Of a stretch of DNA of 35,547 nucleotides, positions 6,938-29,484 are shown piece after piece. Below the pieces are notes generated by a model, which made no database searches, was not told the origin of the DNA, and saw only the letters and a list, made by a program, of their open reading frames with translations. Origin of the DNA: an uncultured Verrucomicrobiota bacterium (GTDB taxonomy: Bacteria; Verrucomicrobiota; Verrucomicrobiia; Limisphaerales; CAZIFU01). Location of the stretch: the NCBI GenBank assembly GCA_964539075.1, contig CAZIFU010000263.1, forward strand, positions 1 through 35,547. The letters are read 5' to 3'. Each line of letters opens with the position of its first letter. The stretch's first letter is position 1. Both the position numbers and the translations under genes were made by a program.

Positions 6938-7016
6938 AATTGTGGTATGAGGCATGAGGTATGAATGCATCGGGACGCGCCTTGAGTTTCATATTTCCCG
7001 CCTCATACCTCATACT
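6938..7016. repeat. REP-like imperfect palindrome built on the GGTATGAGG / CCTCATACC motif. It overlaps the start codon and signal-peptide codons of the downstream binding-protein gene.
   Basis: ggtatgaggcatgaggtatgaatgcat...cgcctcatacctcatac. The same motif recurs at 10567-10660. Confidence 0.6.
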
Positions 7017-8604
7017 TTTCCTCCTCGCCGCCTGCGCCCGCCGCGAGCCGCCCGCCGACCTGGTCATCATCAACGGCGCCGAACCCGGCTCGCTCGACCC
7101 CGCCCTGGCCATCAGCCTGGAGGAGTTGCGCGTGGTGACGGCGCTCTTCGAGGGCCTGCTGCGCTACGATCCTCAAACCGGCCGGCCCGTTCCGGGACTG
7201 GCCGACCGCTGGGAAGTTTCGCCCGACGGCCGGACCTGGACGTTCCACCTGCGCACCAACGCCGTCTGGTCCACCGGCGAACCGATCCGCGCGGACGACG
7301 TGGTGTATTCCTGGCGGCGCGTGCTCGACCCGGCCACGGCGAGCGATTACGCGGGCCAGTTATTCTACCTCAGCAACGCCGAGGCCTTCAACAGCGGCAA
7401 ACTCAAGGATCCGTCGCAAGTGGGCGTGCGCGCGCTCGACGACTTTACTGTCGAGGTCGAGTTGAACCATCCCACGGCGTTTTTCCTCGACCTTTGCGCG
7501 TTTCAAACGCTCGCCGTCGTGCCGCGGCAAACCATCGAAAAGCTCGGCGATCGCTGGTTGCGCGCGCGCCCGTTGCCGGTGAGCGGCCCGTATCAACTCG
7601 AGGCCTGGCGCGTGAACGACAAGGTGCACCTGCGCAAAAACCCGCGTTACTGGGACGCCTCCCACACGCACTGCGAGCGGGTGGACCTGCTCCCGATCAC
7701 CACGCCCAACACCGCGTTCAACCTTTACGAGGCCGGCCACGCGGACATCATCTGGGACAAGGAACTCGTGCCCGCCGAACTCCTCGAAGTGCTCCGCACG
7801 CGGCCCGACTACCATGCTTTCGATTATCTCGGCACCTACTTCCTGCGCTTCAACACGACCCGCAAACCGTTCGACGATCCGCGCGTCCGCAAGGCGCTCA
7901 CGCTCGCCATTGACAAGCAGCGCCTCGTCGAAAAAATCCTCAAGTCCGGCGAAAAAACCGCCACGCATCTCGTGCCGCCGGGCGTGGCCAATTACCAGTC
8001 CCAGGCCGGCCTGCCGCATGATCCCGCGCAGGCGCGGCGGCTGCTGGCCGAGGCGGGCTATCCGGGCGGCAAAGGGTTCCCCGCCTTCGCCTACCTGTTC
8101 GATTCCGCCGCCGGGGGCGCGGCGAAAATTCACGCGAAGATCGCCGTGGAAATCCAGCAGATGTGGCGGCAGGAACTCGGCGTCCAGGTCGAGCTGCGCC
8201 AGATGGAAAAAAAAGTTTACCTCAAGGCGCAGACGTCGCTCGACTATGACGTGAGCCGCAGCAGTTGGATCGGCGACTACAACGACCCGAACACGTTTCT
8301 CGATTTGTTCATGAGCAACAACGGCAACAACCGCACCGGCTGGAAGAACGCGTCTTACGACCGGTTGATGCGCGCGGCCAACATGGAAATGGATGTCGCC
8401 CGGCGCGCCGCGCTGTTGCGCCAGGCCGAGGCGATGCTCGTGGCCGACGAGGCGCCGATCGCGCCGATCTATTTTTACAGCGGGTTCAACTACTTCAATC
8501 CCGACCGCGTGGCCGGCATTTACCCGAACCTGCTCGACCTGCACCCGATCAACGCCATCCGAAAATTGAGCGGCGTGAGGCGGGCAGCGAGGAATGACCC
8601 ATGA
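6961..8604 (+). CDS. ABC transporter substrate-binding lipoprotein, family 5 (OppA/DppA-like peptide/nickel)
   Basis: Lipobox LLAAC after a hydrophobic N-terminus. The family-5 SBP region DRWEVSPDGRTWTFHLRTNAVWSTGEPIRADDVVYSW is present. It is followed by two permease genes. Confidence 0.9.
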   Translation: MNASGRALSFIFPASYLILFLLAACARREPPADLVIINGAEPGSLDPALAISLEELRVVTALFEGLLRYDPQTGRPVPGLADRWEVSPDGRTWTFHLRTNAVWSTGEPIRADDVVYSWRRVLDPATASDYAGQLFYLSNAEAFNSGKLKDPSQVGVRALDDFTVEVELNHPTAFFLDLCAFQTLAVVPRQTIEKLGDRWLRARPLPVSGPYQLEAWRVNDKVHLRKNPRYWDASHTHCERVDLLPITTPNTAFNLYEAGHADIIWDKELVPAELLEVLRTRPDYHAFDYLGTYFLRFNTTRKPFDDPRVRKALTLAIDKQRLVEKILKSGEKTATHLVPPGVANYQSQAGLPHDPAQARRLLAEAGYPGGKGFPAFAYLFDSAAGGAAKIHAKIAVEIQQMWRQELGVQVELRQMEKKVYLKAQTSLDYDVSRSSWIGDYNDPNTFLDLFMSNNGNNRTGWKNASYDRLMRAANMEMDVARRAALLRQAEAMLVADEAPIAPIYFYSGFNYFNPDRVAGIYPNLLDLHPINAIRKLSGVRRAARNDP

Positions 8605-8725
8605 CCAAGGCCCAATGACAAAGGAATTCCCCAGGGGCAATTCCCAAATAGAATATGGCGCTGAACCACGGCCTTGCGTCATTGGAATTTGGTCATTCCT
8701 TTGTCCTTGGTCATTGGACCTTGGA
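8590..8725. repeat. REP-like inverted-repeat array of AATGAC / GTCATT units in the binding-protein/permease intergenic spacer
   Basis: gaatgacccatgaccaaggcccaatgacaaaggaattcc ... gcgtcattggaatttggtcattcctttgtccttggtcattgg. The arms are extensively complementary. Confidence 0.55.
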
Positions 8726-8736
8726 CCTTTCGCACA

Positions 8737-10567: not shown

Positions 10568-10660
10568 AGGTATGAGGTATGAGGTATGAATTATGAAGTA
10601 CCCGCGCCTCAACGCACGTCCCTTCCTCATCCTTCATAACTCATCATTCATACCTCATAA
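10567..10660. terminator. Bidirectional hairpin/REP element (GGTATGAGG family) between convergent genes
   Basis: aggtatgaggtatgaggtatgaattatgaag ... cttcataactcatcattcatacctcataactcac. Arms of about 30 bp lie between the stop at 10567 (+) and the stop at 10662 (-). Confidence 0.55.
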
Positions 10661-10661
10661 C

Positions 10662-12071
10662 TCACTTCTGCGTCGGCGCGGGCAGGTTGAGCGCGGTGCG
10701 CAGTTGGGCCTGCAATTGCGGCTGGAGTCCGTGCTCCGGATCCAGCAGGCGGTCGAGCGCCTCCCGCTTCAATTGCGGCAGCGGCGGCAGGCCGACACGC
10801 TTTAACTGCGTCGCGAACCGGAGTTGGTGCTGTTGCCAGATCTGCTCGGCGAGATGTTCGTGGCCGGCGGCCTGGTCGTTTTCTCCCAACGCCAGATAAG
10901 TGAAGGCGGTGGTCAAAATCCCATCAATGTACCCCTTGATTCTGTCAATCGAAGCGCCCGTGAGTTGGTCGCTGACGCGCTCGACGGCGAACCGGTCGAG
11001 GTCCAGATCGGCCGCCACGGCGTCGGGATATTTCGCCCGCAAGGTGGCCAGCCACTGAGCCGCTTCGGATCGGCGGTTGAAAACGTAAAACAAGGAAACC
11101 ACGTGCGATAAAAAAAACTTGTGCCCGGAGCCGATGCGCTCGCGGGATTCGGGTTCCGCGGCGAGCATTTCTTCATAGGCGGCATTGGCCCTGGCGACGA
11201 GGTCGAGATTGGGGCCGAGTTCGAATTGCCCTTGCGGGTTGGGCACCACGCGCCCGCGCAGGCAGGACATTTGCATGGACTGATAAACCACCCGCCGCAG
11301 GAAGTGCAGGTCCTGCTGCCGGCCTTTTTCCAGGCCGAGCTTGGCCCAGTAAATGGCGTGGGCGTCCGGCAAGCGCCAGTCCAGCGGGCCGTACTCCTCG
11401 TCCACTTCCTTCATCCGCTGCGGGTCGAGCTTGTAAGTGTCCCGCAGCAGTCGGGCGCGGGCCTGCGCGTCGGCGTTGGTCGGATTCATCAGCGCCGCGA
11501 AGTCGGGCCGGCCCGAACCCAGCGCGCGCGTCATTTCCTCGGCCCACGACTGCTTATAGTACATGTGGGCGTCGTCCATGATGTAGCCGATCTTGTGCTG
11601 GAAGAACCAGGCCAGCTCGCGGTAGATCAGCCCCTCCCGCGGATTGTAGGCCAGCGCGTCGTCGCGCAGCAGTTCGACGCCGCGCCGGACCCACAGCCAG
11701 CGGTCGTGCGGGTCGGTGAATTTGACCGAGATGTTGTAGGCCATGTTCCAGCTTTGATAAACCCAGACGAGGACAAAGTGCGGCTCCAGTTTGGTGATCC
11801 AATCGGCCAGTTGCGCCATCTCAAAATATTTCCCCTGGTCCTGCAACTCGGTCGCGCGGATCCAGAGCAGGTTGGCGATCAAACCACGGAAACCGCCCAG
11901 TGCGACCGTGGTGAAGGCGAGCACGGGCGGCGCATTCTTCAGCGGCTCGACGCGCGTCAAGCCGAGCCGGGCGCGGTCCTGGTTCAGCCGGCGCTGCGTG
12001 AAACCGGACCCGCAAAGCAACACCAGCGCGAGGGCCGCCAGGACCAGCTTGTAGGCTTTGGCGCGGTTCAT
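10662..12071 (-). CDS. Hypothetical signal-anchored, largely alpha-helical protein; last gene of the ABC-2 transporter operon
   Basis: The start was trimmed to ATG 12071 (MNRAKAYKLVLAALALVLLCGSG). This start overlaps the upstream stop (TAATG). No recognisable catalytic motifs. Confidence 0.6.
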   Translation of the reverse strand: MNRAKAYKLVLAALALVLLCGSGFTQRRLNQDRARLGLTRVEPLKNAPPVLAFTTVALGGFRGLIANLLWIRATELQDQGKYFEMAQLADWITKLEPHFVLVWVYQSWNMAYNISVKFTDPHDRWLWVRRGVELLRDDALAYNPREGLIYRELAWFFQHKIGYIMDDAHMYYKQSWAEEMTRALGSGRPDFAALMNPTNADAQARARLLRDTYKLDPQRMKEVDEEYGPLDWRLPDAHAIYWAKLGLEKGRQQDLHFLRRVVYQSMQMSCLRGRVVPNPQGQFELGPNLDLVARANAAYEEMLAAEPESRERIGSGHKFFLSHVVSLFYVFNRRSEAAQWLATLRAKYPDAVAADLDLDRFAVERVSDQLTGASIDRIKGYIDGILTTAFTYLALGENDQAAGHEHLAEQIWQQHQLRFATQLKRVGLPPLPQLKREALDRLLDPEHGLQPQLQAQLRTALNLPAPTQK

Positions 12072-13450
12072 TAGGTTCCTTGCGCGGTGGCCAGTTCGCG
12101 CCGGTTGAAAATGGTGATGCCAATCGCGCCGATCAGGCCGCTCATGAGCACCAGGATTTGCGTGAAGGCCAGTCCGAGCTGGCCCCAAGTGATGCTCCGG
12201 CCCGTGCTCAAGGCGTCAATGGGCGAAAAGCCCTGTACCAGGTTGATCACTTTCAGCAATGCCTTGAAGGCCGGCAGGACCACCCAATCCACCCAGCTCG
12301 AACCGCGCTCGCCGGTTTCGTGGTTCACGTCCATGATCGAGCCTTGCTGGATCACCCCGGCGAGTGTCCCGCTGGACAACACGATCAGCAGCACGCTGAG
12401 GGAAAAAAATGCCGCCACCGGAAACGACAGCCCGCTGGCCGACGCCAGCCCCAGCGACGCCAGCAGGCCCAGCCAGCAAAACACGATCAGCAGGCCGCGG
12501 ACAAAATTCAGGCCGAAGCCGCCTTCGCGGTAGAGCACCTCGAGGCCGTCTTCCAGCGGAAAGACCAGCGCCGTCTGGCTCCGGTTGCTGCACTCGACGT
12601 TGAGCCGGCCCTGTTCATCGAGCAGGGCGGTGGGCACCTGCAATTCATGAAATGTCTCCGCCGCCAGGCGCAGCGTGAGCTGCGAGCGTGGCCGGTCCGG
12701 TGGGCCGGCCTCCCAGACCGTGTCGTACGTGCCGGTGGCGCTCTTTTGTGCGGCGTAAAATTTCACGCGCAGATAAAGCGTCTGGCCGCGCAACGAATGT
12801 TTCACCGGGCCGAGATCAACCGTCCAGCGGCGCAAAAAATTCGGCGGCACGACCTCGTGCTGGGCTTTGATGTCCGCGCGGAGTTGTCTGCGCAACAGTT
12901 CGAGGTTGACGCCTTCGAGGGACATTTCCCTGGGTTTTTTTTCAAGCACGCGCTCGACATCGCGCTCGAGGTCCGGCGGCGGCTCCCTGGCCGAACCACG
13001 TGCCACCAGCACTTCGTTGAAAAGGATCGCCCGCTGGTCCACGGGCTGGGTGGGCAGGCCGTTCGCGCGCCAGATCAGGAGGAAAAAAAGCGCGCTGCCG
13101 GAGAGCGCCAGCAGCAGCGCATTGAGCGCCATGATGCCCAGCCATTTGCCCAGCCACACCTGCCAGCGCGCCACCGGCTTCACGTCGAGCATTTGCGCCT
13201 GGCATTCCGCGATGTCGCGCGCGAGCGTGCCGCAGCTCAGCCAGAGCGTGGCCAGGCCCAGCAGCACGGTGATGAGGCCCAGATTGTAGGTGAGCATGAT
13301 CTGGATGAAGCCGCGCGCCGTGCCGTCGTCCTTGATGACCAGCGGCAGGCCGATCACCGCGCCCAGCAGGAGGACCGCGAGCACTTGAAAGAGGCGGAAA
13401 CGGACCGCCGATTTCAATGTCAGCCAGGCGATGGCGAGCAGCGGTTGCAT
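12071..13450 (-). CDS. ABC-2-type transporter permease with a large extracytoplasmic loop
   Basis: N-terminal and C-terminal clusters of TM helices flank a hydrophilic domain of about 170 aa. It lies downstream of an ABC ATPase gene on the same strand. Confidence 0.65.
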   Translation of the reverse strand: MQPLLAIAWLTLKSAVRFRLFQVLAVLLLGAVIGLPLVIKDDGTARGFIQIMLTYNLGLITVLLGLATLWLSCGTLARDIAECQAQMLDVKPVARWQVWLGKWLGIMALNALLLALSGSALFFLLIWRANGLPTQPVDQRAILFNEVLVARGSAREPPPDLERDVERVLEKKPREMSLEGVNLELLRRQLRADIKAQHEVVPPNFLRRWTVDLGPVKHSLRGQTLYLRVKFYAAQKSATGTYDTVWEAGPPDRPRSQLTLRLAAETFHELQVPTALLDEQGRLNVECSNRSQTALVFPLEDGLEVLYREGGFGLNFVRGLLIVFCWLGLLASLGLASASGLSFPVAAFFSLSVLLIVLSSGTLAGVIQQGSIMDVNHETGERGSSWVDWVVLPAFKALLKVINLVQGFSPIDALSTGRSITWGQLGLAFTQILVLMSGLIGAIGITIFNRRELATAQGT

Positions 13451-13508
13451 CAGGTGAATCTCAAACGGCAGAATTCGGCTCGAGTCGTGACTTTGAAATG
13501 GAAAGATT

Positions 13509-13952
13509 CCCTCACCCCGGCCCTACCCATGAACCGAGCGTTCGGTGTCCACCCTTTAGGGTGCTCGGCGACCGGGGACACGCTGAAGCGTGGACACCAA
13601 ACGACGCGGCCCGGTTCAGGGGCCCAATTCGTGAGCCTCGGCGGTTCATGGAATCTCTCCCGGTGGAAGAGGAGGAATCGTTGCCAGCGTGTTCGCAGTT
13701 TGAGCGCGCCTGTTTCGGCGAGAGACGGGATGCGGTTCTCCCTCTCCCTCCGGGAGAGATTCCACGGCCCGCACAAAGCCGCGAATTGTGTCCCTGAACC
13801 GGAGAAAACCGAGCTTGGCCGCGTCAGCGTCTTGGACTGCGCCAGTCCTCTGGCGCTTTGGAAGCCGTGGGTTGTCGAAAGCGCCAGAGGACTGGCGCAC
13901 TCCAAGACCTGGCGGTGATACGAACGGTTCATGGGTAGTGCCGGGGTGAGGG
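13509..13952. mobile_element. Non-coding structured element of about 445 bp, bounded by 28-bp terminal inverted repeats (MITE-like) with nested internal hairpins
   Basis: Left end ccctcaccccggccctacccatgaaccg and right end cggttcatgggtagtgccggggtgaggg are 27/28 complementary. Internal 14-bp perfect inverted repeat ggaatctctcccgg/ccgggagagattcc. A hairpin with 31-bp arms at 13829-13908. The motif cggttcatgg is re-used three times. There is no credible ORF. Confidence 0.5.
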
Positions 13953-13993
13953 CGATTTTAATCTGCATCATCCCGGATTCCACAACGTCATCC

Positions 13994-15190
13994 TCACTTC
14001 GGTTTGCCCAGCAGCGAGGAAAGTTTTTCGTTCGCCTCCGACAAGTCGGCGGGCTTGGTCGGTTCGCCACTGGGCGGCGCAGCGGGCGCAGGTTTCGGTT
14101 GGGTCAACGTTTCGAGCCGGGCCGCGTCAACGGTTTCCTTGGGCGCGACTTCCACTCTCACCGCCGGTTCGGTCCTCGGCGCGGTCAAACGGTCCAGCAC
14201 TCTCGCCGTGCGGTCCGGCCCCACGGCCTCGCCGCGCAGGTAGGCGGCCACCGGGCTGCCGGCCATCGCGCCGGACGTTTCGGCCGCGCTTTGCCGCGCT
14301 TTCTGCACCACATCGAGGAAATAGCTTTCGAGGTTTTGCGTCGGGTTATCAATCTGGATGCGGTCGGCAGCGACGTCCTGCCGGATGATCTCCAACACGC
14401 GCTCGAGCGTCTGGCGCGGCAACACCGGCGTGGTGATGCGGATCGAGTCCGGGCGCGCGAGCAATTCCTTGAGCGTGCCCATCGCCTGCACCTTGCCGCC
14501 GTACAACACCGCCACGCGGTCGCACACGTCCTCCACGTCGGCCAGCAGGTGGCTGCTCAGGAGCACGGTCTTGCCGCGGCGCGCGAGGGCGAGGATCAAA
14601 TCCTTCACCTCGCGGCAGCCGATGGGATCGAGGCCGGACGTCGGCTCGTCGAGAATGATGAGGTCGGGGTCATTGATGAGCGCCTGGGCGAGGCCGATGC
14701 GGCGCTGCATGCCTTTGGAAAACTCGCCCACGGCGCGGCGGCTCACCTGGCGCAAGCCGACCATGTCGAGCAGTTGCGCGGTGCGCGTGCGGCGTTGGTC
14801 GGCGGGCAGCTCGAAAAGATTTCCGAAAAAGTCGAGCGTCTCGGCCGAATCGAGGTAGCGGTAGAGATACGATTCCTCGGGCAGATAACCGATGCGCGAC
14901 TTGGTGGCCACGTGGCGCGGCGAATGGCCGAAGACTTCGATGTGGCCTTTGGTGGGATGGAGCAATCCGAGCAACAGTTTGACGGTCGTGGATTTGCCCG
15001 AGCCGTTGGGGCCGAGCAGGCCGAAGACTTCGCCGCGCCGGATTTCAAAATCAATAGTGTCCACCGCCCGCGCCTTGGTGCGGCCCCAGAAGTCCTTGAA
15101 GACCTTCGTCAGGCCGCGCACCGCGACGACGACCTCGTTGGAGTGCGGACTGGGGAGTGCGGAGTGCGGAGTGGGTTCAACGGCGATCAT
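13994..15190 (-). CDS. ABC transporter ATP-binding protein (ABC-2 subfamily) with a Pro/Ala-rich C-terminal extension of about 110 aa
   Basis: Walker A GPNGSGKST, signature FSKGMQRR, Walker B LIILDEPTSGLD and the H-loop SSHLL are all present. A GGAGAG Shine-Dalgarno lies in the 16-nt spacer after the upstream gene. Confidence 0.9.
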   Translation of the reverse strand: MIAVEPTPHSALPSPHSNEVVVAVRGLTKVFKDFWGRTKARAVDTIDFEIRRGEVFGLLGPNGSGKSTTVKLLLGLLHPTKGHIEVFGHSPRHVATKSRIGYLPEESYLYRYLDSAETLDFFGNLFELPADQRRTRTAQLLDMVGLRQVSRRAVGEFSKGMQRRIGLAQALINDPDLIILDEPTSGLDPIGCREVKDLILALARRGKTVLLSSHLLADVEDVCDRVAVLYGGKVQAMGTLKELLARPDSIRITTPVLPRQTLERVLEIIRQDVAADRIQIDNPTQNLESYFLDVVQKARQSAAETSGAMAGSPVAAYLRGEAVGPDRTARVLDRLTAPRTEPAVRVEVAPKETVDAARLETLTQPKPAPAAPPSGEPTKPADLSEANEKLSSLLGKPK

Positions 15191-15206: not shown

Positions 15207-17210
15207 TTACGCCGGCTTCGGCGTCAACTGCGTGACAGTTTCGTGCGCGCGGCCGCCCGTGGTGCCCGGCGGCTCGACGGGGCCGGGTTGATAATGCTCC
15301 AATTCCTCGCCTTGCCGCACGAGGCGGGCGCTGTTGAAGACCACGATCAGTGAGCCGGCGTTTTGCAGCACGGCCGCGAGCACGGGATTCAAATAGCCGA
15401 ATGCCGCCAGCACCAGGCCGCCAATAATGAACAGCACGCCGAGCAGAAAATTCTGGTTGATCACGCCGCGCGTGCCGCGCGAAAGCTGCACCAAAAACGG
15501 CAGCCGCCGCAGATCATTGTTCATCAGCGCAATCGTCGCGCTGTGGATCGCCACTTCGCTGCCGGCCGCGCCCATCGCGATGCCCATGTCGCCGGCGGCC
15601 AGCGCGGGCGCGTCGTTCACGCCGTCGCCGACCACCGCGACGCGATAGCCTTTGGCCTTCATCTGGCGGACGAACTCGACCTTGTCTTGCGGCAGGCACT
15701 CGGCCAGCACTTCGCCGCAGCCGATTTCACCCGCCACGCGGGCTGCGACGGGCTGGCGGTCGCCGGTGACCATCGCGATGCGCCGCACGCCGTGCTGCAA
15801 CAAGTCGGCGAGCGACTCGCGCGCTTCGGCCCGCGTCTCGTCCTGCAAACCGACCCAGCCGAGGCACTGGCCGCCGCGCGCGACGAAGACCACGCTGAAG
15901 CCTTCGGCTTCGTTCAAATCCACCGATTTCAGAAAATCCTCGCGAATGCCGTTGTCCTTGAGCCATTGCGCGCGGCCGATGATGACGGGTGCGCCGTCCA
16001 CCTCGGCGGTGATGCCGCGCCCGGCCGCTTCGGCGAAATTTTTCGGCTCGGCCAGCGGCACGCCCGCTTCGGTGGCCAGTTGCGCGAGCGCCTTGGCCGT
16101 GGGGTGGTTGCTGTATTTTTCGGCGGACGCGGCGAGCCGGAGCAATTCTGCCGGCGTCGTGCCCGCCAGCGGCGCGAGGCGGCTGACGACGAGCACGCCC
16201 TTGGTGAGCGTGCCGGTTTTGTCGAAGATGAAGGCGTTGATCTTCGCGGCCAGTTCGATGTCGCTGACGTTTTTGATGAGAATGCCCAGACGCGCGGCGG
16301 CGGAGAGCGCGGCCACCATCGCGGTCGGTGTGGCGAGAATGAACGCCGAGGGACAGGCGACGACGAGCACGGCGATGACGCGGCTCAAGTCGTGCGAGAA
16401 CGCCCAGACCAGCGCGCCGATGACCAGCACGAGCGGCGTGTAGTAACCCATGTATTGGTCAATGAGCCGCATGATCGGCAGCTTGGTTTTCTCGGCGGCG
16501 AGGATGAGTTCCTGCACCTTGCCCAGCGTCGTGTCGTGGCCGGCGCGCGTGACGCGGATTTCCAGGACGCCGGTGAGGTTCTGCGTGCCGGCAAAAACTT
16601 CGTCGCCGGGCTTTTTGTCCACGGGCAGCGATTCGCCGGTGATGTTGGCCTGGTTGAACGCGCCCTGGCCGTTGACGATGACGCCGTCGGCGGCCACGTT
16701 GTCGCCGGGGCGCACGCGGATCATGTCGCTCACGGCGAGGGCCTGGACGGGAACTTCTTCCTCGACGCCGTTGGCGAGACGGCGGGCCTTGGTGGGGGTG
16801 AGCTTGATGAGCGATTCAATCGAGGCGCGCGCGCCGGCGGCGGTGCGGGTTTCGATGATTTCGCCGATGGACATGAAGAAGGCGACGATGCCGGCGGTCT
16901 GGTAACCGCCCGAGGCGAAGGAAGCGAGCACGGCGATGCCGACCAGTTCGTTGATGCCGAGGATGCCGCGGCGCAGGTCCTGGATGGCCGTCCAGACGAT
17001 GGGGTAGCCGAGGATGATGGCGCCGAACATGGCGCTGAGGCCCGCGACCATGGCGGCCTGGTCAAACGCGCGCTCGACGATGAACGAGTTGATGATGAAG
17101 ATCAGGCCCACGAGCGTTTGCGGGAGGCGATAAGGAACCTGCTCCGTGCTCCGGCGGGCGGGCGCGGTCCCGGCGGGCAATTCCTGGGCGATGGGCAATG
17201 AGTCAGCCAT
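15207..17210 (-). CDS. P1B-type (heavy-metal) cation-translocating P-type ATPase, lacking an N-terminal HMA metal-binding domain
   Basis: DKTGTLT phosphorylation motif, a CPS motif in the TM helix (VVACPSAF), plus MVTGD and GDGVNDAPAL. The protein is about 667 aa and starts directly with TM helices. Confidence 0.85.
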   Translation of the reverse strand: MADSLPIAQELPAGTAPARRSTEQVPYRLPQTLVGLIFIINSFIVERAFDQAAMVAGLSAMFGAIILGYPIVWTAIQDLRRGILGINELVGIAVLASFASGGYQTAGIVAFFMSIGEIIETRTAAGARASIESLIKLTPTKARRLANGVEEEVPVQALAVSDMIRVRPGDNVAADGVIVNGQGAFNQANITGESLPVDKKPGDEVFAGTQNLTGVLEIRVTRAGHDTTLGKVQELILAAEKTKLPIMRLIDQYMGYYTPLVLVIGALVWAFSHDLSRVIAVLVVACPSAFILATPTAMVAALSAAARLGILIKNVSDIELAAKINAFIFDKTGTLTKGVLVVSRLAPLAGTTPAELLRLAASAEKYSNHPTAKALAQLATEAGVPLAEPKNFAEAAGRGITAEVDGAPVIIGRAQWLKDNGIREDFLKSVDLNEAEGFSVVFVARGGQCLGWVGLQDETRAEARESLADLLQHGVRRIAMVTGDRQPVAARVAGEIGCGEVLAECLPQDKVEFVRQMKAKGYRVAVVGDGVNDAPALAAGDMGIAMGAAGSEVAIHSATIALMNNDLRRLPFLVQLSRGTRGVINQNFLLGVLFIIGGLVLAAFGYLNPVLAAVLQNAGSLIVVFNSARLVRQGEELEHYQPGPVEPPGTTGGRAHETVTQLTPKPA

Positions 17211-17376: not shown

Positions 17377-18468
17377 TCACGGCTTCGGGGTTTCTTTGGC
17401 CGGCGGTTTTTCCGGCTCGCGGTTCAGTTGCAGGCGCAGTTCGCGCGTTTTGCCGTCGGCGCGGGTGGGCAGAAAAACCTTGTCTCGCGCGTTGGCCAGC
17501 ACGCGCTCCATCGTCCCGGTCAGCAGCCGCCGCTGGAACAATGCCGGGTCTTTCTGATATTGCGGCAACTGGTCGGTGAAATACCGCGCGTCGGCGGCGA
17601 CCGCTTGCACGACCTGGTTGCTGGTTGTGACGCCGGCGCTGACGATGGCCTGGGCCTCACCGATGGCCTTGCGCGTCGCCTGATCGGCCAGCCCGCGCGC
17701 CTCGCTGATCTTTTTGCCGCGGTCCTGCGCGGCGGACTGCACGGCGTCGAACGCGGGCCGCACGGCCAGCGGCGCGCTGGTCTGGACTTCGCTCGGGTCA
17801 AGGGCAACGCCGAGGTTCAGCTCGTCAATCTTCCGGTTCACGCGCGCGAGCACGAGTTCCTTGAAGCCGCTGGTGTCCTTGTAGAGCGCCGCGTCCGCGC
17901 TGTAACGGGCCGAGGCGTAGAAGAGCGCGTTGTTCAACACGCCTTGGAGCACGTTGGTGATGTTGGCGAAGGTGAAGTGGTAGGTCAGCGCGTCCGCCGG
18001 GCGGATGTGATACTTCAACGTCGCGCGCACGTGGATGATGTTGCCGTCGCCGGTCAACGTGTAGCCGTCCACGCCGGGGGCGAGGGACTCGCGCGCTTCG
18101 GGTTCCTTGCCGGCGGCCTCCAATTCGGGCGTCGTGGCATACCAGCCGACGCTCGAAGTGATCGTGTGGCTCTCGCCAATGGGAATGCGGACGATCTCAT
18201 CAATGGGCCGGGGAAAGGACCAATGCCAGCCGGGCCGCAGCAATTGCTCGCCGCCGGCGCCAACCGGCCGGCCGAAGCGGAGCAGGACGGCGACCTGGTT
18301 CGGTTCCACCACGAACATGCCGGAGAAAAGGAACACGAGCGCCAGGCCGGCCATCAGCCACTTGACGATGCGGAAGCTGCTGCCCAGCGCCTCCGCCAGC
18401 GCCTGCGTGCCGGCGTCCTCGAGGGCGGCGGTTGCGGCGGGCGGACGCTCGCGTTCGGAATGTTCCAT
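17377..18468 (-). CDS. hflK: SPFH/band-7 protein, HflK-like
   Basis: An N-terminal TM helix is followed by an SPFH domain and a C-terminal coiled-coil/Ala-rich tail. It is adjacent to an HflC-like gene. Confidence 0.8.
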   Translation of the reverse strand: MEHSERERPPAATAALEDAGTQALAEALGSSFRIVKWLMAGLALVFLFSGMFVVEPNQVAVLLRFGRPVGAGGEQLLRPGWHWSFPRPIDEIVRIPIGESHTITSSVGWYATTPELEAAGKEPEARESLAPGVDGYTLTGDGNIIHVRATLKYHIRPADALTYHFTFANITNVLQGVLNNALFYASARYSADAALYKDTSGFKELVLARVNRKIDELNLGVALDPSEVQTSAPLAVRPAFDAVQSAAQDRGKKISEARGLADQATRKAIGEAQAIVSAGVTTSNQVVQAVAADARYFTDQLPQYQKDPALFQRRLLTGTMERVLANARDKVFLPTRADGKTRELRLQLNREPEKPPAKETPKP

Positions 18469-18561
18469 GGGGTCTAGGGTCTAGGGTTTAGGGTCTGGGG
18501 GGCCGGGGTCTGGGTTCTCGGGTCTCGGGTCTGGAGTCCGGGTCCCAAGAACCCAGACCCT
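18469..18561. repeat. Tandem array of about 11 G-rich heptamer units (GGGTCTA/GGGTTTA/GGGTCTG...) ending in an inverted copy (agaacccagaccc)
   Basis: gggtctagggtctagggtttagggtctggggggccggggtctgggttctcgggtctcgggtctggagtccgggtcccaagaacccagaccc, located in the hflC-hflK spacer. Confidence 0.7.
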
Positions 18562-18651
18562 GTTTCTCCAGCGGGCCGGACAAGCTGAAGCTTGAACTCC
18601 GAACGGGCTGAACATGGCGTTGGCGTGGTAAACTTCATGTGCGTGCTCTCG

Positions 18652-19581
18652 TCATTTCTTCTGCGTCGGTGAAGGCGCGGCGGGTGGCGGCGCTTCGGTC
18701 CCCGGCGAGTGCAGCATGTTGAACGGCGGCGTTTGCTGGTCGAGAATCAACGTCGTGCGTTCCTTCGTCGCAAGTTCGAGCGCCTTGAGATCGAGGAGGA
18801 AGTTGGCCAGGCGCGGATTTTTTTCAAAAACAGCGAGAAACTTCGCGGCCTCGGCGTCGGCCTGGCCGCGCAGAACGGTCGCTTCGGCGTCAGCCTTGGC
18901 GAGGATTTCCTGGCGCTGGCGGTCGGCGTCGGCGCGGATGCGGATGGCCTCGGCCTCGCCTTCGCCGGTGAATTGTTTGACGAGTTGCTGGCGCTCCTCG
19001 CGCATCCGGTCGAAGACCTTGGCGGTGATGCTTTCCGGCAGGCCGAGCTGTTTGATGCCGACGAATTTGATTTCGATGCCGTAACTGTCCACCGCCTTGC
19101 GCTGCAGGTCGGTTTCCATTTTCTTTTCGATCTCGTCGAACTTGAGGTCCTGCTCGTTGGTGGAGATGAAGTCGGCGAAGGCATACTGGCTGACGACGCC
19201 GTTCTTGGTGTCGCGCACCTGGGCTTCGAGGGTCTGCTCGGCGCGGGCGAGGTCGCCCTGGTCGAAGCGTTCGAGGAACATCCTGGGATCGGCGACGCGC
19301 CAGCCGACGTAGAGGTTGATGAGCAGGTTGCGACCGTCGCGGGTGGCGGTCTGCTCGAAGCGGCGCTCGAAGGTGTGGATGCGGTTGTCGAAGGTGTAAA
19401 CGTTCTGGATCGGCCAGGGGAGCTTCCAGTAGAGGCCGGGCGTGGTGAGGGTGCGCGAGTATTTGCCGAAGGTGGTGACGACGGCGACGTGCGTCTGGCG
19501 CACCTGGAAGGCGAAGAGGAGCAGGGCGAAAATCACCAGCAACACGGCGCCGGTGAACAGGGTGATGGTGTTTCGTTTCAT
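18652..19581 (-). CDS. hflC: SPFH/band-7 protein, HflC-like
   Basis: N-terminal TM helix. HflC-like motifs FDRMREERQ, GEGEAEAIRIRADADRQ and AEAAKFLAVFEKNPRLANFLLDLKALE are present. Confidence 0.85.
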   Translation of the reverse strand: MKRNTITLFTGAVLLVIFALLLFAFQVRQTHVAVVTTFGKYSRTLTTPGLYWKLPWPIQNVYTFDNRIHTFERRFEQTATRDGRNLLINLYVGWRVADPRMFLERFDQGDLARAEQTLEAQVRDTKNGVVSQYAFADFISTNEQDLKFDEIEKKMETDLQRKAVDSYGIEIKFVGIKQLGLPESITAKVFDRMREERQQLVKQFTGEGEAEAIRIRADADRQRQEILAKADAEATVLRGQADAEAAKFLAVFEKNPRLANFLLDLKALELATKERTTLILDQQTPPFNMLHSPGTEAPPPAAPSPTQKK

Positions 19582-19628
19582 GGGTGTAAGCGGTAATTGA
19601 GATAAAACATAATTTGAAATTGGATCGC

Positions 19629-19715
19629 CCTCACCATGAAGCGGAGCACCCCCTCACCCCATCCCTCTCCCCCAATGGGGGAGAGGGTGCCCGAAGGGCG
19701 GGTGAGGGGGAGGGG
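19629..19715. terminator. Nested GC-rich palindrome (likely terminator of the upstream minus-strand gene, at the promoter region of hflC)
   Basis: Perfect palindrome ccctctcccccaatgggggagaggg (19663-19687), nested inside ccctcacc...gggtgaggggg arms. AT-rich sequence follows on the transcribed (-) strand. Confidence 0.45.
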
Positions 19716-19741
19716 ACGGTTCAGGGGTTGCAAGGGCGTGT

Positions 19742-21610
19742 TCATTTCGATTTCGCATCGGGCAGTGAAATGTCGAGCAGATCGGTCCGGATTTTGTCTT
19801 CCAAGTTGAGCAGGATGATATCCTGCGTGTTGGTGACGGCTAGGACGTACTTGCGCACGGGGCCGACGGCGCGGACCAGTGTATCAAGGTAGGCGCGCCG
19901 CGAATAGACGGTGGGCGAGGCTTTGTAAGCGGCGAGCTGGTTGGTGAATTGCGCGGCGCGCGCCTCGGCGCCGGCGAGTTTGTTCACGCGATAAACTTTC
20001 GCTTCGGACAACCGCTTCGCCGCTTCGGCCCCCGCCAGCGGAATGGTTTCGGCCCGGTAGCCTTCGGCCTGGTGAATTTTCGCGGCCTTCTCCTGCACGG
20101 CGCCGATCACATCCTCGTACGCGTCGGCCACGCGGACGGGCGGATGAATGTCCTGCAACCCGACCAACAGCACGCGCGCGCCGAGGCCCAGCGCGTCGGC
20201 GTGCGTCTGGATGCGGTCACGGATGGTTTGCGCGGCGCGGAGCCGGCCGGTGGTCATCACGTCCTCGAGGTCCACGCTCAGGAGATAACGGACGACTTCG
20301 CGGTTGGCGATGTCTTCGAGCAATCGGGCGGCGTCGCGGTGCCGGCCCGCCCAGGCGAAGACGTTGGTGACCTGGTATTGGACCGGGATGTTGACCGAGA
20401 GCAGATTGACCGGCACGGCCTGCTCGACGGTGGTGGTGGCGCTGCGCGTGGCCTCCCGGCTGGCGACGAGAAGATTGAATTCTTCGGCGGTGTGTTTCTT
20501 CGTCCAAAGGGCCACTTCCTCCTTGCCCGGTTTCTCTTCGTGGACGAAACCGACTTCGAAGCTGCGGATTTTCGCGGCGGCGTAGCGATAAACTTTGTCA
20601 ACGGGCCAGGGCCACTTGAGGTGGAAGCCGGCGTCGAGCGCCGCGCGGCCGGCGACCGGCTGGCCGAAGCGTTCGAGCAACCCCTGCTCGCCCGGCTCGA
20701 TGATGACAAACGTGGTGGACAGAAACAGCACGCCGAGTTGCAAGAGCACGAGCCAGGCGATGGCGCGTTCGAGAAAACGGTAGAACCAGGTCTCGGAAAC
20801 CTTGAAACCGAACTGGTAATCGAGCGCCTGCGCGGCGGTGGTGATGACGCCGTCGGGCTGGCCGAGCAGGTCCACGAGGCGGCTTTCATAAAGGGGGCGG
20901 GCGGCCTGGCCTTTGATGCGGGGGCGGTAGATTTCGAGCAGGAGGTTCAGGGCGGTTTCCAGGGCCGCAAGCGCGAGGATCACGCAAAATGCGCGAGCCA
21001 CCCAAAGGTCGAACCTCGGGAAGCCGAACCACGCCGCCGCCTCCGTCACCGTCACGACACAGCACAGCAACGCGCCCAGCATCAGGTAACCCGCCCCGGG
21101 CCGGAGGAGGCGCTGCTTTTCCAGACGCGCGATGCCGGCGGAGTATTTGCCCAACAGGAAGAGCACCAGCGCGAACAGCGCGAACAACGCCAGCGCGATC
21201 GTGACGCGGGCGACGATGGGTGGCGTCGCCCTGGCCAGCACGCGCCAGAACCAGGCGGCCGCGCCGCCTTGCAACAGCAGCAGCAACACGGTGAAGGCCG
21301 GCACCAGAAACCGCTCAAACTGCGCGCGGGCACGGGCTGCCGGGAAGGTTTCGGTTTCCGCGCTGAAGAGGGCCGCGCTGCTCCGGGCGCGGGTCAGTTC
21401 GTCGTATTCAAGTTTCTCCAGCCGTTCGCGCGCCTCCAGCCGCATCTGGAAACAACTCAGGGCGGCGACGAGGAAACCCAGGCCGAGGAAAAAAACCGCG
21501 CCCAGTCCGCTGGCGCTGTTCGCGTGGCGGGCCACCAGGGCGCAGGCGAAGCCGATTACCAGCAGCGCCCCCAGATTGGTCAGGCCGATTTTTTGAAGGT
21601 TGCGGTTCAT
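19742..21610 (-). CDS. Fusion protein: N-terminal polytopic membrane domain of about 300 aa (about 7 TM) plus a C-terminal SPFH/band-7 (HflK/C-like) domain
   Basis: The hydrophobic N-terminal half runs up to ...VLFLSTTFVIIEPGEQGLLERFGQP, where the SPFH domain begins. The C-terminus is Ala/Glu-rich and HflK-like. Confidence 0.75.
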   Translation of the reverse strand: MNRNLQKIGLTNLGALLVIGFACALVARHANSASGLGAVFFLGLGFLVAALSCFQMRLEARERLEKLEYDELTRARSSAALFSAETETFPAARARAQFERFLVPAFTVLLLLLQGGAAAWFWRVLARATPPIVARVTIALALFALFALVLFLLGKYSAGIARLEKQRLLRPGAGYLMLGALLCCVVTVTEAAAWFGFPRFDLWVARAFCVILALAALETALNLLLEIYRPRIKGQAARPLYESRLVDLLGQPDGVITTAAQALDYQFGFKVSETWFYRFLERAIAWLVLLQLGVLFLSTTFVIIEPGEQGLLERFGQPVAGRAALDAGFHLKWPWPVDKVYRYAAAKIRSFEVGFVHEEKPGKEEVALWTKKHTAEEFNLLVASREATRSATTTVEQAVPVNLLSVNIPVQYQVTNVFAWAGRHRDAARLLEDIANREVVRYLLSVDLEDVMTTGRLRAAQTIRDRIQTHADALGLGARVLLVGLQDIHPPVRVADAYEDVIGAVQEKAAKIHQAEGYRAETIPLAGAEAAKRLSEAKVYRVNKLAGAEARAAQFTNQLAAYKASPTVYSRRAYLDTLVRAVGPVRKYVLAVTNTQDIILLNLEDKIRTDLLDISLPDAKSK

Positions 21611-29181: not shown

Positions 29182-29293
29182 ACCATCATGCCACCGGGCA
29201 ACGCTTCACGCGCAAAGGCTCCCTCCTCCGAGGCGCCGGATGTTCTGGGAAACAGGTCCCGGACGTTCCAATGGAGTCAGAAAGCCCGCGTTG

Positions 29294-29484
29294 AATGACG
29301 AATGACAAAATCCTAATGACGAAAGAATGACGAAGGCCCTCAATGACTAATGAGCGGTTCGCCTAAAAAAATGTTGCGGAGCGCAGCAGGCCGGCATGGG
29401 AGGCAGTTCCCGGCCGGCAGAGGCCATTGGGATTTCGTCATTCGGATTTCTTTCGTCATTCGAGCTTCGTCATTAGTCATTCCC
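29294..29484. repeat. Large inverted array of the 7-mer AATGACG (left arm, 4-5 copies) and CGTCATT (right arm, 4-5 copies) around a GC hairpin, sited in the UXS promoter/leader region
   Basis: gaatgacgaatgacaaaatcctaatgacgaaagaatgacgaaggccctcaatgactaatgag ... tttcgtcattcggatttctttcgtcattcgagcttcgtcattagtcattcc. Confidence 0.6.

Follow-up and report, generated by a model that had tools for sequence, protein, structure and literature searches.

We analyzed an intergenic block that lies between the genes of an ABC transporter ATPase and an ABC-2-type permease in contig CAZIFU010000263.1 of an uncultured Verrucomicrobiota bacterium; "the window" hereafter means the whole 35.5-kb stretch of DNA under study. 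Most probably, the block consists of two units, placed head-to-head, of an interspersed repeat that is lineage-restricted, non-coding and rich in hairpins, comparable to repetitive extragenic palindromes (REPs), to bacterial interspersed mosaic elements (BIMEs) or to REPIN-type dimers. The units belong to a dispersed family and their boundaries are defined, the block has been inserted into the junction, its two arms are of different origin, the helices of the units are kept by selection and no strand bias was observed. A first-pass annotation of the window had read the block as resembling a miniature inverted-repeat transposable element (MITE) of about 445 bp with 28-bp terminal inverted repeats (TIRs). 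That proposal holds in that the block is non-coding, inserted and a member of a dispersed repeat family, but it is not one 445-bp element with TIRs of its own.

Two inverted units in the ATPase-permease spacer

The operon at this locus runs on the minus strand and, according to the list of open reading frames (ORFs) and Pfam, comprises genes for a P-type ATPase, an ABC ATPase, a permease and a further 508-aa ORF. Exact look-ups found no record of either ATPase protein; that of the permease returned only two short Logan contigs (L001 and L002), and a look-up of the permease cluster yielded neither an accession nor an organism name. Its ATPase-permease spacer measures 543 nt, as the first-pass annotation had stated in calling it unusually long. 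For comparison, we used 80 metagenome loci with relatives of the permease (36-61% identity), 67 of which also have the ATPase gene upstream. Spacer lengths at these 67 junctions, which are approximate as they were taken from tblastn alignment ends, were at most 60 nt in 43 cases, 61-130 nt in nine and longer in 15. Since the usual ATPase-permease spacer is 14-60 nt long, the 543-nt spacer of the window is an insertion. Neither the scaffold nor the P4 module of the units described below was found in any of the 80 loci (0.5 Mb), and 67 of 67 junctions were devoid of a unit; the block is lineage-specific at this junction. In addition, no transposase was detected among the 26 window ORFs that were scanned with Pfam.

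At the same junction, strong hairpin repeats that are unrelated to the block and also lineage-specific were seen in at least seven other lineages (loci L034, L044, L058, L059, L065, L067 and L083). In L085, the long gap corresponds to an in-frame N-terminal extension of the permease that begins MTRRFEIYRNTDRQ..., and similar sequence is present in the gaps of L084, L086-L088 and L091. Such repeats are either tolerated or favored at this junction.

The ends of the block are complementary at 27 of 28 positions, as first noted, and the complementarity extends to arms of 33 nt (13509-13541 and 13920-13952, 91%). With up to three mismatches, the 28-mer was expected 0.00 times in 100 dinucleotide-preserving shuffles of the window, where it is found at just two sites, the two ends of the block. 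Further inward, a 70-nt imperfect inverted repeat (13611-13680 and 13733-13802) includes the 14-nt perfect pair GGAATCTCTCCCGG / CCGGGAGAGATTCC. This pair, a long-arm hairpin (H3, its arms measured here at 34 nt) and several alternative pairings had all been listed by the first-pass annotation and are all present, and so is the internal re-use of the terminal motif: CGGTTCATGG is present at 13642 and 13925 and, as its complement, at 13527, and the sites at 13612 and 13792 differ from it by one mismatch. The predicted folding energy of the block is -292.5 kcal/mol for the minus strand and -310.6 kcal/mol for the plus strand, and shuffles gave about -180 to -190 kcal/mol (z = -16.7 and -16.3 for the two strands). 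The predicted fold is a four-way junction made of a closing stem and three hairpins.

A hidden Markov model (HMM) of the scaffold, the conserved part of the repeat unit, found exactly two units in the window, one on the minus strand at 13678-13611 and the other on the plus strand at 13735-13802 (units L and R, Table 1). What had been described as a 28-bp TIR is the right end that the two inverted units share, CGGTTCATGG-GTAG-(G/T)GCCGGGGTGAGGG, and the inner inverted repeat of 70 nt arises from the opposed orientation of the two scaffolds. The sequence adjoining the element reads ...GGAAAGATTC on one side and CGATTTTAAT... on the other. A stop-free frame spans the whole block, the ends of which read LTPALPMNR on both strands; the explanation already offered for the long ORFs at this place, namely that they are spurious products of these features, agrees with our results for the ORFs 13450-14070 (minus, 206 aa) and 13417-13797 (plus), neither of which had a Pfam match. 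No Rfam family reached its gathering score in the window, and the best sub-threshold matches (E <= 10) were microRNA-precursor and signal recognition particle models of the generic long-hairpin type, which reward long helices. Furthermore, a promoter and terminator scan detected no sigma-70-like promoter and no intrinsic-terminator-like site in the block, so that transcription of the operon should run through it.

The two units are not recent duplicates of each other. Unit L is 81% identical over 182 nt to L003/L004, and unit R is 81% identical over 189 nt to L005. Where the scaffold varies, identity is 88% between unit R and L006, 85% between unit R and L017 and 85% between unit L and both L024 and L011, but only 62% between units L and R; both scaffolds are nearer to units of other metagenome-assembled genomes (MAGs) than to one another. 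The cargo hairpin also differs between the arms, being H1 in unit L and H3 in unit R. Judged by sequence comparison, the two units of the window are from different sub-lineages of the family. They nevertheless have two peculiarities in common, a GAATTG where most other units have GATTTG and the long right end GCCGGGGTGAGGG, which suggests either a genome-specific sub-population or a homogenization of the arms.

Architecture and shuffling of the repeat family

The pattern GGAGAGATTC-N20-40-CCCTGAACCGG, searched in one genome per species (185,579 species), returned 21 loci. Seventeen of them share one architecture, and the other four (L008, L015, L018 and L023) are chance matches in unrelated sequence. 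These 17 further units occur in 10 MAGs, most of them labeled Verrucomicrobia, Pedosphaera or Limisphaerales, at unrelated intergenic sites (their intergenic location, like their orientation to genes, was read from crude gene calls); one Pedosphaera MAG has five exact-pattern copies, a second MAG three and a third MAG two. The recurrence in other genomes that the mobile-element proposal anticipated applies to the units, but the 445-bp composite was not found again.

From 5' to 3', the unit of ~150-220 nt usually starts with a small hairpin, CTCTCCCC-loop-GGGGAGAG, followed by ATTCCAYG and the mini-hairpin P3. Next come CGATTTGTKCCCCTGAACCGG, a near-perfect "cargo" hairpin of 54-135 nt and (C)CGGTTCATGG, and the right end consists of a GTAG-like tag, GG and sometimes a G-rich tail resembling GGGGTGAGGG. 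The part that precedes the cargo constitutes the scaffold, with GGGGAGAGATTCCA, the small covarying hairpin P3 and then GATTTGTGCCCCTGAACCGG / GATTTGTGCC, and the unit closes with CCGGTTCATGG-GTAG-GG. The cargo hairpin, hypervariable in sequence between copies, is enclosed by P4, a stem of 11-12 bp formed by CCCTGAACCGG and CCGGTTCATGG with one recurrent C-T mismatch. Alignment of copies from the same MAG shows that similarity begins at GGGGAGAG and ends at GGGTAGGG, with unrelated flanks; identity is confined to the stretch from GGGGAGAGATTCC to CATGGGTAGGG, and these two ends are not inverted copies of each other. These limits fix the boundaries of the unit, which has neither TIRs of its own nor an evident target-site duplication.

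Several features of the unit point to selection on its structure. Aligning 19 scaffolds gave 83% pairing for the P3 helix; of its five pairs, four have changes on both sides (CG/UA, AU/GC, GC/CG), its covariation score was reached by none of 500 shuffles and all slid-partner controls collapse. The structure is under selection, and the P3 helix is kept by compensatory changes. Such covariation is equally expected for a DNA hairpin recognized by a protein. The polarity of the P4 mismatch is constant, the 3' arm being CATGG in 14 of 16 units; the retention of a single mismatch in a stem that is perfect elsewhere suggests that the strand is recognized in its folded, single-stranded form. The tag that follows CCGGTTCATGG is GTAG in nine of 16 units and GTCG, GTGG, GCAG, GGAG (two units), GGCG or ATAG in the other seven.

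Units occur as singles, the commonest form, as inverted dimers and as clusters. A second head-to-head dimer (L013, 3630-3910) has other cargo and a shared central hairpin. A protein search with the translated open frame against 5.8 billion predicted proteins returned only eight ORFs, all of them spurious and with matches to 18-41% of the query; the matches are partial, to the H1 part in two of them (P0001 and P0002) and to the H3 part in the remaining six (P0003-P0008). An exact look-up of P0001 found no record. The corresponding contigs include a 640-nt intergenic cluster of units with H1 and a different hairpin (L003/L004) and an H3-bearing piece (L005), and the pieces are always framed by CCCTGAACCGG ... 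CCGGTTCATGG and preceded by GGAGAGATTC. The H1 cargo is also found at L003 2140-2210, and the H3 cargo in L005, L007, L009 and L019. In L005 (615-628) the H3 loop is reverse-complemented relative to the window (13863-13874), L007, L009 and L019, with the flanks unflipped; such a flip-flop of the hairpin loop is what recombination between long inverted arms of DNA typically produces.

Cargo and P3 are not strictly linked. The hairpin preceding H1 is TGAACC...GGCTCA in the window but GAACG...CGTTC in L003, the "GGAGCGCCGGCG" cargo was found behind two P3 classes, and the CGGCCCG class of P3 carries H3 plus two other cargos. The family thus evolves as a mosaic, like BIMEs and BOX elements. The two strands are equivalent in structure: over 11 complete units the summed folding energies are -863 and -858 kcal/mol and the G-U pairs number 53 and 46, with no strand-specific structure. 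Besides, the orientation of units relative to neighboring genes is mixed, although few cases have reliable gene calls. Strand symmetry, mixed orientation and the flipped H3 loop favor a palindromy maintained at the DNA level.

Four loci with the repeat (L007, L009 and L019, CAYHFK01..., and L022, CAYWCK01...) come from MAGs labeled "uncultured Bifidobacterium" or "Bifidobacteriaceae", with cargo ~90% identical to that of Verrucomicrobiota units; the taxonomy assigned to these third-party co-assembly bins appears doubtful. The single match among viral contigs was discarded as a chance match within coding sequence. In L005, an IS110-family transposase gene (929-2275, DEDD_Tnp_IS110 and Transposase_20) starts ~230 nt past the H3-bearing unit (505-735), and a lone CCATGAACC half-site lies between the two; the far end of the insertion sequence is beyond the contig. 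Since REPs are known targets of IS110 elements (PMC1525189), the units may be targeted by them as well.

Comparison with known repeats and alternative explanations

Di Nocera et al. 2013 (PMC3733652) described super-families of REPs with an unpaired GTAG at one end, also in Verrucomicrobia (Opitutus terrae) and Planctomycetes. Such GTAG-tagged REPs commonly form head-head dimers with the GTAG outward, 20-100 bp apart, which may fold into larger structures, and the TIR repeats beside RAYT-like "TIRYT" genes share the motif GGGGWSAS (PMC3733652, section 16). The units of the present family resemble REPs, BIMEs and GTAG-tagged REPs as extragenic palindromes that occur as singles, as inverted dimers with outward GTAG and as clusters with mosaic combinations of motifs, and they appear to share a GTAG-like tetranucleotide next to the stem (GTAG itself in nine of 16 right ends, G-N-N-G variants in most of the others). 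The likeness would extend to co-transcription within operons, as with the REPs of malE-malF and hisJ-hisQ, which belong to ABC-transporter operons. In contrast, REPs are 20-40 nt long, with stems of 5-13 bp and loops of 2-20 nt, and the units described here are 5-10 times longer. Their tagged stem P4 has as its "loop" a near-perfect, interchangeable hairpin of 54-135 nt, and a conserved scaffold of ~50 nt with its own covarying hairpin precedes this stem. Furthermore, the tag reading GTAG lies 3' of the stem, seemingly opposite to the REPs of Escherichia coli, in which the tag is 5' of the stem. No RAYT or TIRYT gene was found in the window (Pfam) or in the retrieved loci (crude motif search).

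A REPIN (Bertels and Rainey 2011, PMC3116915) likewise consists of two inverted repeat copies and a spacer that together form one long hairpin, and is non-autonomous and intergenic. However, its arms are two copies of the same ~25-nt REP and it replicates as a doublet (PMC3116915), whereas the arms described here are of 150-220 nt, have different cargo and come from different sub-lineages of a family in which singles predominate. As to the repeats associated with TIRYT genes, GGGGTGAG of the outer TIR and GGGGAGAG of the left unit end fit GGGGWSAS, and dimers and clusters are found in both cases, but the match is to a degenerate motif of 8 nt and no TIRYT gene was seen beside any unit. With MITEs, Correia elements of Neisseria, ERIC/IRU of enterobacteria and BOX of Streptococcus pneumoniae, the block and its units have in common a size of ~100-450 bp, an intergenic and presumably co-transcribed location and strong hairpins, and with BOX also a modular build with variable inner modules. 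Nevertheless, MITEs have TIRs of their own and target-site duplications, both absent from the unit, and Correia, ERIC/IRU and BOX elements show no sequence similarity to it, none of them matching in the Rfam scan. Finally, PATEs derived from IS200/IS605 resemble the unit in lacking TIRs and target-site duplications and in having subterminal imperfect hairpins and asymmetric ends; they differ in inserting 3' of a fixed target of 4-5 nt, while the bases 5' of the units vary, and no TnpA or TnpB gene was seen here. The element is of an ordinary kind, a REP/BIME-like interspersed palindromic repeat, in a new guise.

Among the alternative explanations, we consider it unlikely that the block is a domesticated RNA-stability or processing element, kept to set the ATPase/permease stoichiometry via mRNA decay or RNase III. 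The precedent for it is that REPs in the malE-malF spacer of E. coli and the hisJ-hisQ spacer of Salmonella stabilize the upstream mRNA in ABC-transporter operons, and the block does have an extremely stable predicted structure on the transcribed strand, contains no terminator and should be transcribed through. The unrelated strong hairpin repeats of seven other lineages at the same junction also fit this proposal; being unrelated in sequence, they agree equally with a permissive and with a selected site, and intergenic spacers simply tolerate such repeats. Besides, the 43 of 67 junctions of at most 60 nt do without such a structure. More improbable by far is a structured non-coding RNA gene or a cis-regulatory RNA (riboswitch or attenuator) specific to the transporter operon, a possibility that the first-pass annotation had also raised. 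Although the predicted fold is very strong and the P3 hairpin covaries, the structure is absent from all 67 orthologous junctions, a lack of positional conservation that already contradicts such a role, it has no Rfam family at the gathering score, both strands fold equally well and the same units adjoin unrelated genes in both orientations.

One MITE of 445 bp, with TIRs of 28 bp and moved as a whole by a TIR-binding DDE transposase, would account for ends that are complementary far beyond chance and for an insertion relative to the orthologous junctions; also the GAATTG and the long right end GCCGGGGTGAGGG common to both units would be expected if the pair could act as one REPIN-like entity. 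We nonetheless hold this to be decidedly unlikely, as the arms differ in cargo and their scaffolds are nearer to units of other MAGs, singles are the commonest form, copies within a MAG share no TIR, no second pair of the 28-mer exists in the window, the only other dimer (L013) has different cargo and no target-site duplication is visible. A quite unlikely alternative is that the units are more than selfish DNA, the scaffold and the 12-bp stem with its obligatory C-T mismatch forming a folded recombination or recognition site, loosely attC-like, at which some single-strand-specific enzyme would exchange or install long hairpin cassettes; the mixing of cargo with scaffold and P3 types and a stem mismatch that is asymmetric in nearly all copies lend it some support.

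Lastly, it is very improbable that the block arose as an artefact of assembly, or that the 206-aa ORF at 13450-14070 on the minus strand is a genuine small protein gene. In favor of such readings, the window is a contig of a MAG, contigs of short reads break off within the block (the permease-bearing Logan contigs L001 and L002 end at window position 13550, 42 nt into the element) and a stop-free frame runs through the whole element. However, these independent contigs confirm the first 42 nt of the block (13509-13550) on the permease side, and the gene order, ATPase followed by permease, is conserved, so that the contig is no chimera at this place. As for the ORF, it has no Pfam match, its sole relatives are partial matches to other hairpin copies and an open frame follows from palindromic GC-rich sequence. 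Repeats of this kind break or corrupt assemblies; at the contig ends of L024 and L025, the cargo hairpin was seen to run into G-rich low-complexity sequence.

Returning to the head-to-head pair of interspersed repeats, its origin may be envisaged as follows. The units would spread as DNA, in trans, by means of an enzyme encoded elsewhere, for which our best guess is a protein of the HUH/Y1 type (RAYT- or TIRYT-like) or another hairpin-recognizing recombinase, probably acting on folded single strands. Cargo hairpins and scaffolds would be reshuffled by recombination at the shared stems. Transcribed through within the operon, the pair would yield a four-way RNA structure of ~-300 kcal/mol that would probably uncouple the two cistrons and may act as a barrier to 3'-5' exonucleases or as a target of RNase III, by analogy with the REPs of malE-malF and hisJ-hisQ. 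An incidental effect on mRNA stability or processing is plausible, and it would be a side effect and not the reason for the presence of the element.

Several points weigh against an interspersed repeat mobilized in this way. No target-site duplication and no conserved flanking target were found around the units, the expected direct repeat being absent in clean form both at the flanks of the block and around the units compared within MAGs. No mobilizing enzyme was found, and a crude search for HUH...Y..NP in all retrieved loci gave two matches that are not credible, in low-complexity frames. The orthologous-operon comparison, proposed at the outset as a search for an empty site, gave short junctions without a unit but no strict empty site, the closest permease relative being 63% identical, so that distant orthologues were compared. 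The family is small in public data, with 17 exact-pattern matches among the 185,579 species genomes, and the invariance of GGAGAGATTC and CCCTGAACCGG, fixed by the search pattern, partly reflects how the copies were found. Moreover, the window is an entire 35.5-kb MAG contig whose source MAG lies outside the scanned genome representatives; the copy numbers given are those of other genomes. The compensatory changes of P3 and the recurrent mismatch of P4 could also be explained by a host function, and the effect on the operon mRNA is entirely inferred.

Three further possibilities were rejected or set aside. Insertion of the unit into the 3' arm of a pre-existing CCCTCACCCCGGCCCTCTCCCC hairpin does not apply as a general rule; in L011, L017, L021, L019 and L026 the sequences that precede the left hairpin and follow the right end are not complementary. 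A fixed short target 5' of the unit, as for IS200/IS605-like elements, was rejected given that the bases 5' of GGGGAGAG vary among copies. An integron attC was set aside, as the core motifs do not fit RYYYAAC/GTTRRRY by eye.

The transporter operon is otherwise tight, and the family accounts for the gap of 543 bp and the three spurious ORFs in it, as well as for the short-read assembly breaks at this point. It also provides a repeat family with defined boundaries and consensus for the Pedosphaera/Limisphaerales part of the Verrucomicrobiota; little has been described of the repeats in this phylum. In this family REP-like traits (GTAG tag, outward dimers, mosaic clusters) are joined to two unusual ones, namely a scaffold that is conserved and includes a covarying mini-hairpin, and a tagged stem looped by an interchangeable long perfect hairpin. 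Should an enzyme that recognizes the mismatched stem be found, the family might become a system for studying single-strand hairpin recognition.

Features of the window and neighboring repeats

Table 1. Coordinates of the block, its parts and the adjoining features in the window
Feature	Position	Strand	Evidence
Whole composite: two units head-to-head, left ends inward, GTAG-tagged right ends outward	13509-13952		Inverted repeats; fold z about -16 on both strands; unit decomposition
Unit L: CTCTTCC/GGGAGAG hairpin, scaffold, P4, cargo H1, right end CGGTTCATGG-GTAG-GGCCGGGGTGAGGG	~13509-13671	minus	nhmmer E = 1.2e-16
Unit R: CTCCCTCTCCC/GGGAGAG hairpin, scaffold, P4, cargo H3, right end CGGTTCATGG-GTAG-TGCCGGGGTGAGGG	~13738-13952	plus	nhmmer E = 1.3e-16
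Central spacer, 66 nt, not part of the repeat family	13672-13737		Outside both scaffold HMM matches; no match in L001-L005
P3 mini-hairpin of unit L (TGAACC...GGCTCA on the minus strand)	13632-13648	minus	Scaffold alignment, pair counts
P3 mini-hairpin of unit R (CGGC...GCCG)	13765-13781	plus	Scaffold alignment, pair counts
P4 5' arm of unit L (CCCTGAACCGG on the minus strand), pairs with 13527-13536	13611-13621	minus	
P4 5' arm of unit R (CCCTGAACCGG), pairs with 13925-13934, one recurrent C-T mismatch	13792-13802	plus	
Cargo hairpin H1 (GGTGTCCAC.../...GTGGACACC), alternative inner pairings GTGTCCAC/GTGGACAC	13539-13603		Inverted repeat
Cargo hairpin H3, arms 13829-13862 / 13875-13908, 34 nt, 94% complementary	13829-13908		Inverted repeat
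Left "TIR" arm, reverse complement of the right end of unit L; CTAC (13523-13526), CCATGAACCG (13527-13536)	13509-13536		
Right "TIR" arm, right end of unit R; CGGTTCATGG (13925-13934), GTAG (13935-13938)	13925-13952		
Smaller scaffold-less relative; P4-like stem CCATGAAGCG / CGGTTCAGGG enclosing a hairpin	19628-19730	minus	DNA fold z = -5.4
ABC-2-type permease, 459 aa, intact, downstream of the junction	12071-13450	minus	Orthologues align from residue 1; relatives carry PF12679
ABC transporter ATPase, intact, upstream of the junction	13994-15190	minus	Pfam ABC_tran E = 2.3e-31; orthologues align to residue 398
P-type ATPase	15207-17210	minus	ORF and Pfam

Upstream of the P-type ATPase and ABC genes, three consecutive SPFH/Band_7 genes lie on the minus strand (17377-18468, 18652-19581 and 19742-21610), and the trio possibly forms one long membrane-associated gene cluster with them. 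The smaller scaffold-less relative of the units sits in the 160-nt spacer between two of these Band_7/SPFH genes; its inner hairpin is CCCCCTCACCCC...GGGGGAGAGGG, also read as CCCCCTCACCCCATCCCTCTCCCCC...GGGGGAGAGGG...GGGTGAGGGGG. Other inverted repeats of the window are located at or near ORF ends (6941-7012, 8593-8729, 10568-10664, 29293-29482 and 18495-18571), and their arms are short tandem repeats, for example three copies of TGAGGTA facing TACCTCA, or heptamers of the AATGACG type. Comparable tandem-repeat hairpins occupy the orthologous ATPase-permease junction in L044, L065 and L067.

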